This document shows positions 10,742 through 62,218 of a stretch of 64,000 bases of DNA, in pieces. The position numbers and the translations under genes were made by a program. The stretch is from positions 217,837,979 to 217,901,978 of the forward strand of contig NC_058134.1 of NCBI RefSeq assembly GCF_016433145.1, read 5' to 3'. Position 1 is the first letter of the stretch. The number at the start of each line of letters is the position of its first letter. Under the pieces are notes generated by a model. It made no database searches. It saw nothing but the letters and a program-made list of their open reading frames with translations, and was not told where the DNA came from. The DNA comes from Gracilinanus agilis (Eukaryota).

Positions 10742-10932
10742 CAGTGATTCCCAAAGTGGGAGCCACCGCCCCCTGGTGGGTGCTGCAGTGATCCAGGAGG
10801 CGGTGATGGCCACAGATGCATTTGGGAGTGGTGAATAACTGTACGGGGGTGGTGATAGTATGTGACAGGGGGCACTAAGTAATATTTTTTCTGGAAAGGG
10901 GGCCATAGGCCAAAAAAGTTTGGGAACCACTG
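10742..10932 (+). mobile_element. hAT (Charlie/Buster-type) MITE family A, copy 1, 191 bp
   Basis: TIRs CAGTGATTCCCAAA / TTTGGGAACCACTG; 8-bp flanks gtctagag / ttctagaa fit the NTCTAGAN target. Confidence 0.9.
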
Positions 10933-11634
10933 TTCTAGAATGAATAGGAGAGGGAGAATGCACCTCTCCATTTTGACCAAGCCAGGAAACAACATGAGGT
11001 AGCACAAATTATGATGGGTTTAGAGTAAAGTGTTAGAGGTTTAAATTTCAGCTCTGCTACTTAAGGTCATAGTTCTAAAGCTAGAAAAGCCCTTCAAGGT
11101 CACTGAGTTCAACATCTTCATTTTACATGGGAGGAAACTTAGTCCCAAAAAATGATCATAGATTTAGAGTTGAAAGGGATAGATAACTCAGAGGCTATCT
11201 AGTCCAACTCCTTCATTTTATAAATGGGGAATCTGAGACCCAGAGAAGTTAGGTATACAGAGACAAAAAGCCCTTAGAAGCCAGCTAGTCCAACACTCTT
11301 ATTTTATAATTGGAAACTGAGGTACAAGGAGACATCACTTACCTGTGGTCATGTAGAATCAAGTTTTTAACCCAGGTTTCTTTACTCTAGAGCTGCTGTT
11401 CTTTCCATTGTGCTACATTAACTTCCCCTTGCTGAGTGACCTCAGCTAAGTCAGTTCCCCTCTATGGTTCTTGATTTATTCCCCTATGAAATGAGGGAGT
11501 TAATCTACTTCAGTTCTTGATCTTTCAATCTACCCTTCCCTGGGATTCAACCTTTCTCTTCAACATTGGTGTTTTCAATGATCAATAGCCATTTGATACA
11601 TATTTCTTCATTTCCTCTTCCTCTTGAATTTCAG

Positions 11635-11752
11635 GTTTGATAACTATTCAGCCAATGTGATGGTTGACAGCAAACCAGTGAACCTGGGACTGTGGGATAC
11701 AGCTGGGCAGGAGGACTATGACCGTCTTCGACCTCTTTCTTATCCCCAAACA
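11635..11752 (+). CDS. RAC2: RAC2 coding exon 3 ([39 protein letters not shown]), Rho-family GTPase
   Basis: Translation matches Rac switch I/II region with RAC2-specific DSKPV (RAC1 has DGKPV); tttcag acceptor ends 11634, gtaagt donor at 11753; 118 nt, the canonical Rac exon size. Confidence 0.98.
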
Positions 11753-12244
11753 GTAAGTTTTACCTTCTGTGGTACCCTGCCTACCCACTCTAGATCCTGC
11801 TTCCTGTCTTGTTTCCCTCACTCTTGCTCAGCATTGGAATGGGAGGGATGAATCAGCAGCAAGTGGTCTCTTCTTTCTTCCCTTCTCTCATGAGTGATTG
11901 ATAGGACTACCTTCAAAATGAATCCCTCAGCCTTTTCACAAAGGGCTAAATAGTTTAGGGGGTGCTAAAGGGAAATTTGAGGAGCTTGGTCCTTGATGTA
12001 GAAATTACTGACTCCCATCGAGCCACAAGAGATCCCCTGGTGCATGGCATGGAAGTTTTCTTCTGGGGTGAGGAGACATGAAATCTGGTAGCATCAACCT
12101 GGCTTTCTACCTTGAAATTCCTCAGACTATCAGGTTTTTCTGGTTTTTAGAAGGATATGGCTGATAATATATGAAATGGTATAGTCTCAGAAGATTAAAT
12201 TATTATTTGATTTTCAGAGCCCTTCTTCCCTTCCAAGATATGAA

Positions 12245-13130
12245 ATGAATGAAAGAGTGGATGAAAAGTTAAATTGGATGCTGAGTAAAGATTATTAATA
12301 GATAAAAGGAAAGTTGGTGGATGGATGGTGGGTGAAGGATGAATAGTGAATGATGACAGATAAGTGGAGGATGGATGAATGGTGGCTGATGGGTAAATGG
12401 TGAATGATAGGTAAGGAAAATAGGTGGTTGGATGGTGAGTGACTGGTAAAGGTCCAATGGTAAATAGTTACTTATATGTGAAGGGGTAGTTGATGGAAGA
12501 ATAGTGGGTGATAGGTGAAGGAAAATTGGTGAATGAATGGTGGATGATGGATGAATGATGAATGATGGATGGTGGATGATGGATGAGTGATGAATGGTAA
12601 ATGGTGGCTGATAGGTGAAGAATGGATGGTAGGAGAATTGTAGGTGATGAGTAGGTGGGTGGAGGTTGATATGTGAAAAGTCTGTGGATATGTATGATAT
12701 ATGGATAGGTGAAGGGAAGACTGATGAATCCACGATAGGTGATGGATGAAGGGTAGAGGCTAAGCGAATGGTAGTTGATGAGTGAAGGAAGATTTGGGTA
12801 TAGATGATGGATAATAAGTGAAGGGAAGAAGAGAATGAATGTAGATGATAGGAAGACTGGGTGAGTGGTGAAGGACAGTTGATGGGTGGGTGGTGGATAA
12901 GGGATGAATGGTATATGACGGGTAAATGGAAACTGATGGGTGAGGAGTGAACAGTCAGTGCTAGGTGGATAGGTGAAAGATAGTTGGTGGATGAATGGTG
13001 AATCATGACTGATGTGTGGCTTATGGGTGATAGATGAAGGCAGGATAGTAGATAATGGGTGAAGGATAGATGATGGATGAGTGGTAGATGATGGGTCATA
13101 GGTGAAAGGTAGATAGAGGACGAATGATCG
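12245..13130. repeat. Degenerate (GGAT/GAT/GGT)n tract of about 0.9 kb in RAC2 intron 3
   Basis: Almost C-free on the + strand; gatggatgaatgg-like units throughout. Confidence 0.9.
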
Positions 13131-13742
13131 CATACTTTATATGCCAGACTATTCTATTGGCTGTTCATTGCCCACTTCTGGGCCTTTGAACAGGCTGCCC
13201 CCATACCTAGAGTACCCTTTCCTTCTTGACTTTACCAGTTGGAATCCAGATTCCTCATTTGTGCTCCTTTCTCCTGCTCTCTCCCAATATTTCATATTTA
13301 TGTGGTGTATATCTTCTATTTGCTTTTCTAGGAACAGTATGAATTTCCCTAATAGTGGAACCTCTTTAAGGGCAGGATTTTTTCCTCTTTGTATCCCCAA
13401 CACCTATCTATCATAGTGTTTGGCATCTAGTAGGTGCTTAATCAGATGGGTTGCTTTAAGATGAATAATGGATAGTAGGTGGTTTATAATGGGTAAGGAG
13501 TGGGTGGTGAGTAAATGGAAGGCATTAAGTGAAAGGTAAGTGATGGATATAGACCATTAGCCAGTCAAATTCCCACCTTTCTTCCTCAATATAGAATTAG
13601 ATGTCTTCAACCTCCACCTGAGTTGTGCAATTCATCCATGGGAGTCATGTGGTATATGGCTTGAGGGAATGAGAGGGGGATAGATTGCCTAGTTCTGGCT
13701 TCCAGTTTGCTGATTTTTACTTTCCCTCTCCTCTCTTTTCAG

Positions 13743-13805
13743 GATGTCTTCTTGATCTGTTTCTCCCTCGTGAGCCCAGCTTCCTATGAGAATGTTCGTG
13801 CAAAG
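13743..13805 (+). CDS. RAC2: RAC2 coding exon 4 (DVFLICFSLVSPASYENVRAK)
   Basis: 63 nt; pyrimidine tract plus cag before 13743, gtgagt donor at 13806; in frame with exon 3. Confidence 0.98.
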
Positions 13806-14071
13806 GTGAGTGATCCTCTGGTACACCCAGGTAAAGGGGAATGGCAGCTTTGGGACAATAGTGGCTCCCTTAGAAAACATTCCGTATGATCGGCTTCTCT
13901 TCACAAGGACAGCAAAAGATGGCTTGAAGAAGAGAGTTCCCCAAGGCTTTGAATGGTGGTAGTGGCTGTGGTGTGTGACCAATGGTGGTTGGTAGGGAGG
14001 GATATTTTGGTTCCATGCCCTACTGCCTCCCAACTTGTGACTCTCTCTCTGCTGGCCTCTTCTCTGCTCAG

Positions 14072-37770: not shown

Positions 37771-38071
37771 CTGACAATGGGAAGCCTGAGAAATACTGCT
37801 TCCCTCTCTCCATCTATCCCTTGGATATCAAAGACCTCTCTTTCTTCTTGTCATTCCATGCCAGGTTAGACTATTTTCTCTGTATTCTACCAAGGAGTCA
37901 GATGGGTTTGACAGGGAGAAAGCTATTGGTTGCCAGAGAAGATCATTTTTTCATATATATAATATTATTCTGTGTCTTTTCTTCCCAGAATTGGAACTGA
38001 TTGTAACTACTGGAGGTGACATGTACTGACCACCATCTTTGACCTTCTCTTGGCTGACTTCTCCACCCAAC

Positions 38072-39316
38072 ATGGACATCACCAGCTTTCCTTCTCCAAT
38101 GTCTGCATCCTCAGAACCAGAGAATGCCTCTCTCGCCTGGCCAGAAGACCCTTTCATGGGGAACCTGTCTACATCACCAGCTGGCACAGGACTAGATGTG
38201 AGTGGTGTGCTGATCCCTCTGGTATACCTGGCAGTGTGTGTGGTGGGTCTTTTGGGCAATTCACTGGTGATTTATGTGGTCCTTCGACACACTGTAAGTC
38301 CATCAGTGACCAATGTCTATATTCTCAACCTGGCCCTGGCTGATGAACTCTTCATGCTGGGTCTACCCTTCCTGGCTGCCCAGAATGCCCTCTCCTACTG
38401 GCCCTTTGGCTCCCTGATGTGCCGCCTGGTCATGGCTGTTGACAGCATCAACCAATTTACTAGTATCTTCTGTTTGACTGTCATGAGTGTGGACCGGTAC
38501 CTGGCTGTGGTGCATCCAACCAGATCATCCCGCTGGCGCACTGCCCCAGTGGCCCGGGCAGTGAGTGCTGCTGTATGGGTAGCTTCGGCAGTCGTGGTGC
38601 TGCCCGTGGTGGTTTTCTCAGGAGTCCCACATGGCATGAACACCTGCCACATCCAGTGGCCTGAGCCTGCTGCAGCCTGGCAGACAGGATTCATTGTCTA
38701 CACAGCAGCTCTGGGATTCTTTGGACCACTGCTAGTGATCTGCCTCTGCTACCTGCTCATTGTGGTCAAGGTGCGCTCTGCCAGTCGGCGGGTCCAGGTG
38801 ACATCATCCAAGCGGCGGCGGTCTGAGAGGCGGGTCACTCGCATGGTGGTGGCTGTGGTGGCCCTTTTTGTGCTATGCTGGCTGCCCTTCTACGTGCTGA
38901 ACATAGTCAATGTGGTCTGTCCCCTACCTGAAGAACCTTCCCTCTTTGGCGTCTACTTTCTGGTGGTCGTGCTCCCTTATGCCAACAGTTGTGCCAACCC
39001 CATCATCTATGGCTTCCTCTCCTACCGCTTCAAGCAGGGCTTCCGAAGAGTCTTGTTACGGCCCTCAAGGAAGGTCCGAAATCAGGAACCACCCACTGGG
39101 CCCCCTGAGAAAACAGAGGAGGAAGAGGAAGAAGATGAGGATGATGAAAGAGTAGCTAGAAAGGAGATGAATGGGCGTATCAGTCAGATCAGCCAACCAG
39201 GCAGTGGGGGACGGGAGCTACCACCCTGTAGACCCTGTGGCAGCGAACACAAGCCTCTCCCAGAAGAGTTTACTGGAGGGGAGAAATCCAGCACTTTGCA
39301 GACGAGCTATTTGTAA
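38072..39316 (+). CDS. SSTR3: Somatostatin receptor type 3, 414 aa class A GPCR, intronless CDS
   Basis: ccaacATGg Kozak start MDITSF; SEPENAS N-terminus, DRY, NPIIY (NPxxY), acidic C-tail stretch and SYL terminus typical of SSTR3. Acceptor cttcccag at 37981-37988. The ORF-track start at 38039 is a TTG. Confidence 0.98.
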
Positions 39317-40990
39317 TTCATGGAATATGATTGGGCAAGGGAAAGAGAGGGGAATCAGAGAGAAGGGTTTTGGGGTGCCCCTGAGTACTGAGGGACCTTG
39401 GGCATCCCTAAAACCCATTTCCACCAATGGGGAGGGGCCTAGGTAATCAGGTCAATGCTGAGGAAGGAGATAGGGGATTGGTGGAAAAAAGGAACCAGAA
39501 TCCTGTGTGACCTTGGGAAAGTCACGTAACTACCCTGGCCCTCAGTTTTTTCAGTTTCAAAATGAGAAATTTGGACAAGATGATGTCTAGGATCCCTTCT
39601 AGGCCTAGACCTATTTTTCTATGATCCTAAGTGGGAGCAGGAAATCCTCAGACTTGACTGAGATAAGAGGTCATATGCTCTTTCCCAAGTAGCTGTCCCA
39701 TAAATGTCTTAAGAAGAGGGGATTTTGGGGATCTGGGCTGTAGCAGATCCTGGATGATGAACCCTTTTCCTCCCCAGATGTGAGTAGCCCACATCTGGAG
39801 TATTGTGCCCAGTCTTGGGTGTCATATTTTAAGAGAAACATTGACCAGTGGTGCTGTGTCCAAGATGTCGAGGGCACTGGATATCATGCTATCTGAGAAC
39901 TGATTGGGTCTGAATCTCAGCTCTGCCATTTTTTAGCCTTATGACCTTAGGCAAGTCACCAAATTTCTCTGGGACTAAGTTTCCTCATCTATAAAATGAG
40001 TAGAATGGATAAAATGACCTCTGACATCTTTTGCAGCCCTTACTCTATGGTTCTATGATGCTGTTACTGCTTCCACCTCTGGGACTCAATTTCTTTATCT
40101 GTAAAATAAAAGTGTTGGACTAAATGATCTCAGGGGCCATTCAGCACTAAATCCTCTGAATCCTCTGAAAGCTCTCTCCAAGTACCTAATGAGCTGCTGT
40201 GTGGAAGACGGAGCAGATCTGTCCTGCCTGGCCCGGAGCAGAATTAGAAGCAAGGGGCTGAGAATTTGTGATGTCAGCTCTCCCTAAGGAGAAGCTTTTT
40301 AAACAACTTTAACTGTCTATCGGGGAAATGGGCTGCCTCAAAAACCCCTTTCACCTCCCTGGAGGTCAGGTGCCTCCTGACTGAGGATGTTGCATAAAGG
40401 ATTTCTGCTCAGGTATGGGTTGGACCAGAAGGGCACTGAGGTCCCTGCCAACTCTGACACTTTTTGACCCTTGAACCAACATCTCTACCCATCTCCTTAT
40501 GGGGGAAGGACCATCCCCCATGCTATTTACTAGATGAATGACATTGGGCAAATTACTTAATCTCTCTGGTCCTCAGTTTTATCATCTGTCCAATGGAATG
40601 GTTGGACTAGATGACCCCTAAGGCCCCTTCCAAATTGAAAGTCAGTGATCCAACCCACCTTTTCCCAATGTCCCTGCCCCATCTCCCACTTCCAACTCCT
40701 GGGTTTTTTAATCCACCCAGGGATTAACCAGTAGAAATGCACTAGGATGGAGCTGAGAGGGAAGGCCAGTTCCATTCCAACATTTTTAGTGGATTCTATT
40801 GGCTTGGAATGGCAAGGTAGCCATCCCGGCTACTGAGAGAGATGTATTCTCAACCTTCCACTTCTCATCCTATAAGATATCTAAGATAATTAGAGCTGGA
40901 GTCATTCCACTGTGGAGCCTCCTTTTGTAGTAGCTTGATTGAAGGAGATCGAGTCTAGAGGAAGATGCTGGGGGAGAGGTGAGCTTGGAG

Positions 40991-41183
40991 CAGTGATTCC
41001 CAAAGTGGGCGCTACCGCCCCCTGGTGGGTGTCGCAGCGATCCAGAAGAGTGGTGATGGCCACAGGTGCATTTATCTTTCCTATTAATTGCTATTAAAAT
41101 TTTTTAAAAAATAATTTCCAGGGGGCTAAGTAATATTTTTTCTGGAAAGGGGTCAGTAGGCCAAAAAAATTTGGGAACCACTG
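40991..41183 (+). mobile_element. hAT MITE family A, copy 4 (AT-rich core variant)
   Basis: Same TIRs; flanks gcttggag / gttggagg share ttggag. Confidence 0.9.
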
Positions 41184-61403: not shown

Positions 61404-62218
61404 GTGAGTGTCCAACATGCTGGTACCTGACTCTGCCCTCTGCTGGGGACCTGGGGAGCAGGTGGGTTGGGAGAATGGAGTCCCTTCTAGAAGCAGACAC
61501 GTCCAATGATTCAACAGACTCCATTTGGTGGGTAAACAGTGCCATATTGTTCCATAACCTTCTAGAGCCCCCTTTGGTGGTGTATATCATCCATCGGAGT
61601 TCTGGGCAAGCTTCCCAGAGTGCTATGTGCATTTCCAGCTATGTAGGAAGAGTAACTTTCCAATACGTTGAGTCAGCCCATTGGGAGCACAGGTCATTGG
61701 ACAATAGTTTTTAGAGTTGGAAGGGATCTTAGAAAACATTTAATCTAATCCTCTTATTTTAGTGATGAAGAAACTGAATCCCTGCCCCAGTACCTTCACG
61801 CTTTCCCCTTAAGTAGGACAAATTTCCCCAGAGCAGAATGGAGCATTTTCACAAGACCAAGCCGCTAAATGGATATTCAGGGGTCAATAGGCCATACTTC
61901 CCCCATCCAAAATGCCCCCTCCTCAAGTTCAGGTCACTTCTTCCTTCCATTACCTCTCTCTCCTTCGTACTACACATAGACTCTAGGCCTATTCAAGTTC
62001 TTATCTGGTGTCATTATGGGCTTAGGATGTCACCTCTCCCAGGATATCATAGTAGGGGTCTTTAGGACAAGACAAAGAGAGAAGAAAACCCTAGAGGATG
62101 GGTCCAGCACTTCTCCTCTGACAGTCAAGCTGATAAAGTCTTCAGACCCCTCCTCAAAATCATATTTTTTAAAATACAGAAATGAAATACATGGGATTAC
62201 AAAAGAAACCAGCTATTT

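Follow-up and report, generated by a model that had tools for sequence, protein, structure and literature searches.

In the genome of the marsupial Gracilinanus agilis, essentially every copy of an exact 14-bp CTCF core motif stems from one non-autonomous DNA transposon family of the hAT type. Four members of this family of MITEs (miniature inverted-repeat transposable elements) lie in the stretch analysed here, a 64,000-nt window of contig NC_058134.1 (assembly GCF_016433145.1), and two of them flank the coding sequence of SSTR3. Sequence comparison makes it fairly probable that a likely imported hAT Buster element spread the motif passively, that CTCF occupies, or selection preserves, a minority of the copies, and that the motif pair around SSTR3 reflects chance.

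Genome-wide spread of the motif

The CTCF match of the element scored 15/15 against the consensus, and its 14-mer CCACCAGGGGGCGG occurred exactly 12,079 times in the genome, compared with 9 occurrences of the reversed control word. Of the first 100 occurrences, 85 were surrounded by the exact MITE sequence; the remaining 15, once fetched, also proved to be MITE copies (100/100), supporting the family as the source of the motif. A 27-mer of the MITE 3′ end had 17,691 exact genomic occurrences. Anchoring at the 3′ end gave 184 copies (194 less 10 with no detectable 5′ end), of which 66 kept the exact 14-mer and 113 kept the core as written in degenerate code (International Union of Pure and Applied Chemistry, IUPAC). 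From these figures we roughly estimate 30–50 thousand copies with some 20 thousand perfect cores, the counted floor being 12,079 + 5,768, where the second number refers to a CpG variant that preserves the motif (see below). Loci L034, L035 and L050 were dropped as duplicates; L049/L050 contains two oppositely oriented copies about 1.2 kb apart.

BLAST of the window returned the four MITE copies and none further. The exact word was present at three window positions, reproducing the places and strands given in a preliminary description of this DNA (Table 1), and copy 2 had indeed lost it by a small deletion, to which a CpG change was added. With at most one mismatch, seven CTCF words were found in the window versus 1.19 expected, a number reached in 0/100 shuffles. 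Since all three exact motifs are copies of one element, they do not count as independent evidence.

Identity and origin of the element

These hAT MITEs belong to the Buster/Charlie subgroup and arose by internal deletion of a 2.3–2.95 kb parent, and the earlier assignment to hAT was borne out by its termini, its target sites and the parents themselves. All four window copies have 14-bp terminal inverted repeats (TIRs) with a single mismatch between the ends. An 8-bp target site duplication (TSD) with at most one mismatch was seen in 141 of the 202 copies having both flanks, and followed the pattern nnnTAnnn (T at position 4 in 133/141, A at position 5 in 137/141), the target preference that defines the Buster/Charlie subgroup. 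Read by eye, the TSDs of window copies 1, 2 and 4 were degenerate, and copy 3 had no recognisable one. Three parents (L361–L363, 2271–2955 bp) were reached by searching the inner part of a metagenomic relative (L251) in the G. agilis genome, through longer copies; they share TIRs and TSDs with the MITE, and their transposase frames are broken. One of them carries a SINE (short interspersed element) in its 5′ region (L363:3243-3427), so that this SINE family was active after the transposon's arrival.

The window copies matched the two ends of the parents at 77–93% identity. Copies 1 and 2 join 120 bp of the parental 5′ end to 68 bp of the 3′ end, and copies 3 and 4 join 84 bp to 115 bp. What had been taken for one family, A, therefore holds as four related copies, which fall into two deletion subfamilies. 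Overall, at least three subfamilies of 190 bp, differing in their middles, were distinguished. Five G/A-rich bases at element positions 56-60 (e.g., window:10797-10801) were hypervariable, with many haplotypes per subfamily.

An open 108-aa piece of the parent transposase had 33 relatives. Most of those with a name were SCAND3-like or ZBED8-like, and PF27046 was present in most relatives; SCAND3-like and ZBED8 proteins are Buster-derived. In a Pfam search with five parent fragments all direct matches stayed below the cut-off, and the related transposase of the bee Colletes gigas had no match in the PDB at E 0.01. The 108-aa piece was 81% identical to proteins of C. gigas and Anolis carolinensis, and parent pieces reached up to 84–89% identity to the bee protein on long stretches. 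Over 586 positions of the bee protein, at least two of the three decayed copies matched it at 86%, and any copy at 96%. A 19-row tree was built from two parents and 17 proteins of at least 500 aa, with 16 shorter matches and L362 excluded. Here the parents formed a 100/100 cluster with the bee protein, the anole protein and a third, unnamed one, the branching order within this cluster being unsettled. Because vertical descent cannot give such identity to bee and anole proteins and such grouping, the parent was likely acquired by horizontal transfer from another animal lineage.

Non-CpG divergence per subfamily was 2.6–3.9%. At the rate of 3.21e-9 quoted in the accessible part of a study of opossum transposons (PMC3621081), this corresponds to 8–12 million years (My), an estimate that the anchoring of copies biases towards young ages, and pairwise identities among the parents (84–89%) allow an age of up to about 20 My. 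These values suggest arrival about 8–20 My ago.

A metagenome scan with the MITE 5′ end yielded 16 loci, among them L251, which was 82–87% identical to copies 1 and 3 across their first 83–120 bases. It holds a deleted relative (L251:1000-560, minus strand) in a contig without CpG depletion, combining B-type 5′ and C-type 3′ segments at about 80% identity to the parents. Loci L252-L266, from 350 bp to 3.8 kb in length and located in eukaryotic-looking metagenome contigs, represent another, more distantly related family that has this TIR and whose subterminal palindrome is GC-rich. Viral contigs gave four TIR-like matches only, which we judged to be chance.

The motif itself can be traced to the repeat structure of the element. 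The sequence GGGGGCGGT recurs as up to six similar units in B-type copies, located at both ends, and hAT elements carry subterminal repeats. The CTCF match consists of the one inverted GGGGGCGGT unit together with adjacent bases. The 5′ end is common to the marsupial element and its metagenome relatives, but the palindrome arm reads GGGGG in the relatives and GGTGG in the marsupial element, a one-base difference that leaves the relatives without the A of core position 3. Long copies and parents show the marsupial form, which places the motif in the founder, from which it was then copied passively. In one 754-bp copy (L364, minus strand) the 5′ end was rearranged as a local hairpin, flipping part of the motif. 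A TGCAG lies 4–8 bp upstream of the core (window:33320-33328 and equivalents). This is probably too near for the upstream M2 motif of CTCF, given its half-site spacing of 20–21 bp.

Decay and partial retention of the motif CpG

The preliminary description had pointed to a methylatable CpG in the motif as a difficulty. The CpG is present; the difficulty is smaller than was stated. It sits at core position 12, where, according to the accessible part of a review, methylation has almost no effect on CTCF binding in vitro (PMC8084297), so that methylation need not exclude the predicted binding. With flanks fixed, the genome contained 8,954 copies with CG, 5,768 with a motif-keeping change (GGCAG) and 4,543 with a motif-breaking change (GGTGG). 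The CpG was thus kept in only 8,954 of 19,265 intact-context copies, and because over half have lost it, we infer that most copies were methylated in the germline.

The same word recurs near the 3′ end, where it is not a CTCF site, and provided an internal control (6,737 CG, 5,817 keep-type and 5,098 break-type). CpG retention was 46.5% in the motif versus 38.2% in the 3′ word, and the keep-to-break ratio was 1.27 versus 1.14. Paired within the same copies, the motif CpG was retained 4,615 times and the 3′ CpG 3,870 times (1.19 times), a difference that, by our own arithmetic, full protection of 11–13% of copies would yield. In a sample of 295 copies (311 fetched less 16 with indels) the CpG was retained in 121/228 copies with an intact core and in 17/67 with a broken one. 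The motif-breaking change was rarer where the core was intact (33/228 versus 22/67, p = 0.001), while the motif-keeping change was found in 70/228 and 23/67, respectively (p = 0.65). The CpGs at element positions 48 and 61 had no comparable link to core integrity. With its mixed controls, this pattern is compatible with roughly one copy in ten being bound or under selection. The comparison of motif and non-motif conservation called for in the preliminary description thus came out modestly positive for the CpG and mixed for the remaining bases.

Several points weigh against occupancy or selection. Protection is slight in extent, the stratification was chosen post hoc and its counts are not fully independent, and most of the sample was drawn from a single contig, within its first 60 Mb. 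The non-motif CpG at position 48 also correlated with adjacent mutations (99/226 versus 17/69, p = 0.005), so that local mutation clustering accounts for part of the signal. The effect appeared mainly with C at position 23 (16/158 versus 15/41) and not with T (17/70 versus 7/26), a dependence for which we know of no CTCF-related reason. It was strongest in a small set of long copies, the other three sets alone being not significant, and the motif CpG (position 26) did not differ significantly from the position-61 CpG in paired counts (58/47 and 31/23). Outside CpGs, core and flank diverged by 2.8% and 3.4% (p = 0.18); against one flank the core was lower (2.4% versus 3.9%, p = 0.001), but the anchored positions 6-19 stood at 1.7%.

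These data bear on a wholly neutral history, in which methylation and closed chromatin kept the motif from ever being meaningfully bound, and the CpG differences stem from context, founder variants and mutation clustering. The loss of the motif CpG in over half of the copies, the clustering at position 48 and the confinement of protection to one position-23 variant all speak for it, as do an asymmetry at the position-20 CpG whether the core is intact or not and the accessible record of opossum liver, where only MAR1 SINEs were reported (PMC3368268). Nevertheless, CpGs in the same word decay faster elsewhere in the element, internal units keeping CG in 10/42 and 11/41 cases versus 18/42, and the keep-to-break asymmetry is present with an intact core (70:33) and gone with a broken one (23:22). 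A founder effect for the motif-keeping change found no support, as none of 23 columns was linked to it (the smallest p was 0.07), and the tolerance of position-12 methylation (PMC8084297) also speaks against neutrality. On balance we regard a wholly neutral history as somewhat unlikely.

Three further observations concern the CpGs of the element. The keep:break asymmetry of 62:26 in the first sample dropped to the genome-wide 1.27 given above, and the position-20 CpG, compared by eye between motif-kept and motif-broken lists (50/100 versus 44/100), carried no information on protection. At positions 26 and 48, in sets picked by motif state, deamination was possibly strand-coordinated (12:4 versus 6:11). 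In the first 18–20 Mb of C1, CpG retention in the MITE was about two thirds by eye, far above the genome-wide level at both element ends, and a GGGAGG variant of the 3′ word was common there; biased gene conversion or a younger subfamily are among the conceivable reasons for the high retention.

The SSTR3 locus

RAC2-like exons lie upstream of SSTR3 and a C1QTNF6-like exon downstream; RAC2 and C1QTNF6 are the names we presume for these neighbours. Copy 1 was placed within a RAC2 intron because of putative exon peptides at 11639, 13743, 14108 and 19125. The RAC2 region also contains a long degenerate purine-rich tandem array within an intron (window:12270-13150) and a CpG-island-like stretch with 52 CpG and 61% GC (window:16001-17000).

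Table 1 MITE copies, CTCF words and the SSTR3 coding sequence, numbered by position in the 64,000-nt window
Feature	Position	Strand	Remarks
MITE copy 1	10742..10932	+	B-type: parent 5′ ~120 bp + 3′ ~68 bp; inside putative RAC2 intron
CTCF core word of copy 1	10766..10779	-	exact match
MITE copy 2	20725..20907	+	B-type; motif destroyed by 9-bp deletion plus CpG change
MITE copy 3	33174..33366	-	A-type: parent 5′ ~84 bp + 3′ ~115 bp; recognisable TSD absent
CTCF core word of copy 3	33329..33342	+	exact match; 4.7 kb upstream of SSTR3 ATG
SSTR3 coding sequence	38072..39316	+	uninterrupted, 414 aa; top PDB match SSTR3, E 1e-224
MITE copy 4	40991..41183	+	A-type; 1.7 kb beyond SSTR3 stop
CTCF core word of copy 4	41015..41028	-	exact match
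Non-MITE CTCF site	30096..30110	-	match to 15-bp consensus; upstream of copy 3
Non-MITE CTCF site	61433..61446	-	exact 14-bp consensus; adjoins C1QTNF6-like exon
Non-MITE CTCF consensus site	4204	+	

The motifs of copies 3 and 4 are convergent and enclose the SSTR3 reading frame over a span of 7.7 kb, just as had been described. The significance attached to this bracket was not supported by a comparison with other copies. Over 16.6 Mb, exact motifs formed 99 pairs of neighbours with random orientations (28 convergent, 28 divergent and 43 tandem), and three of the 99 were convergent within 9 kb. Scaled to the whole genome, this predicts close convergent pairs numbering roughly a hundred or more. 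Calculated from motif density, the chance for one given exon is low (0.005–0.9%). With some 20,000 genes and a choice made after the fact, such a bracket is nonetheless expected by chance, and the pair around SSTR3 is probably of this kind. A likely splice acceptor immediately precedes the SSTR3 ATG, and a GC-rich stretch at 29–30 kb falls outside the convergent pair; the 7.7-kb span may thus exclude the SSTR3 promoter. Copy 4 may lie within the SSTR3 3′ untranslated region.

The same findings bear on a wide exaptation of the family, whereby thousands of copies would function as loop anchors or insulators, with SSTR3 insulated by copies 3 and 4. The 15/15 consensus match, the core kept in 113/184 copies and the precedents of mouse B2, with over 10,000 sites in the accessible text (PMC3368268), and MER20 (PMC9902604) are in its favour. 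Yet convergent neighbours are not in excess, most copies decay freely, core conservation is at best slightly above that of the flanks, and at SSTR3 the promoter may lie outside the span and non-MITE CTCF sites are nearby. We consider wide exaptation improbable.

It appears very improbable that another GC-box or zinc-finger protein (Sp/KLF-like and KRAB-ZFP proteins are candidates) reads the C-variant 5′ end and protects the CpG instead of CTCF: the signal does depend on position 23, outside the 15-bp core, and in the first-100 lists those 3′ words that retain the CpG show, by eye, an excess of the GGGAGG variant, but protection follows positions 28-38, that is, the CTCF core, and spares the very change that CTCF tolerates.

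Proposed course of events

Passive spread with a bound or selected minority could be explained as follows. A hAT Buster transposon would have entered the marsupial by horizontal transfer, its transposase mobilising the MITEs and the GGGGGCGGT units presumably serving as transposase-binding repeats. A single G-to-T change in the subterminal palindrome may have created the CTCF match, making the core at the 5′ end a likely by-product of subterminal repeats that the burst then spread passively. CTCF would occupy, or selection would preserve, a minority of copies, predicted to be about one in ten, and occupancy would make the position-12 C of the motif strand less prone to loss. A bolder extension is a tentative possibility, more doubtful than believable: that an import into one marsupial lineage some 10 My ago from an insect–reptile pool gave about 20,000 perfect cores, that thousands of these are bound in the germline, and that loop anchors were rewired. 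This would be a natural experiment in which much of the strong CTCF site repertoire of a mammal is horizontally imported and lineage-specific.

If the copies are bound, one young imported DNA transposon added CTCF sites to a marsupial at the scale of mouse B2. Tens of thousands of near-identical insertions (intact, CpG-decayed or broken), together with the internal 3′ control, would let the determinants of CTCF occupancy be tested cleanly, and could show how fast three-dimensional genome structure tolerates new anchors. If they are unbound, the family usefully illustrates that a perfect motif does not amount to a site. SSTR3 as a locus contributes little to either outcome.

Comparison with known systems

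In the openly accessible literature, with subscription papers, Repbase and Dfam outside its scope, we found no report of a marsupial hAT MITE carrying CTCF motifs. Transfers of hAT elements into opossum are known from the accessible portions of earlier work (PMC5857283, PMC4408412). OC1, SPIN and other opossum hATs are shared with anole and insects and have MITEs of about 190 bp (PMC3621081, PMC5857283, PMC4408412); OC1 numbers 6,025 copies in opossum at 10.5% divergence (PMC3621081). Three short motifs, including the TIR and the CTCF word, were absent from seven supplement files of the OC1 paper (PMC3621081). Another relevant family is hAT1 of Rhodnius, Bombyx and Hydra, which has an identical 14-bp TIR, an 8-bp TSD with TA at positions 4-5 and a parent of about 2.9 kb, and for which horizontal transfer has been argued, as it is here (PMC3845634, as far as its text is accessible). 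That element is reported only in invertebrates, and the likeness concerns TIR, TSD and parent length, making hAT1 at most a candidate for the same family.

SINEs are known to spread CTCF sites. According to the accessible text of Schmidt 2012 (PMC3368268), opossum MAR1 gave hundreds of CTCF binding events. MAR1_Mdo, B2 and SINEC_Cf resemble the Gracilinanus MITE as lineage-specific repeats that spread the CTCF M1 motif (PMC3368268); they are SINEs, whereas the Gracilinanus vehicle is a cut-and-paste MITE. The text parts and supplement of Schmidt 2012 (PMC3368268) name no DNA transposon family for opossum, which means that the present family was missing in that opossum, unbound in liver, or missed. 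Existing chromatin immunoprecipitation (ChIP) data of the laboratory opossum may lack the MITE family altogether. A search of sequencing runs turned up no ChIP library, which speaks neither for nor against binding.

For DNA transposons, the preliminary description had proposed a MITE as a separate source of insulator sites. The family does supply essentially all exact 14-mers; the kind of source was already known, as the available parts of two studies indicate, from MER20 (hAT-Charlie) and MER91B, which are enriched at human CTCF loop anchors and borders of topologically associating domains (PMC9902604), and from hAT-Tip100, likewise in print as a CTCF source (PMC13399162). MER20 and MER91B are, like the Gracilinanus MITE, non-autonomous hAT-type DNA transposons. 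They are ancient, eutherian and supported by ChIP and Hi-C, whereas the Gracilinanus MITE is young, marsupial, apparently imported, represented by over 12,000 exact words, and described from its sequence. While hAT-derived CTCF sites are known, the scale, the youth and the imported origin in a marsupial are new.

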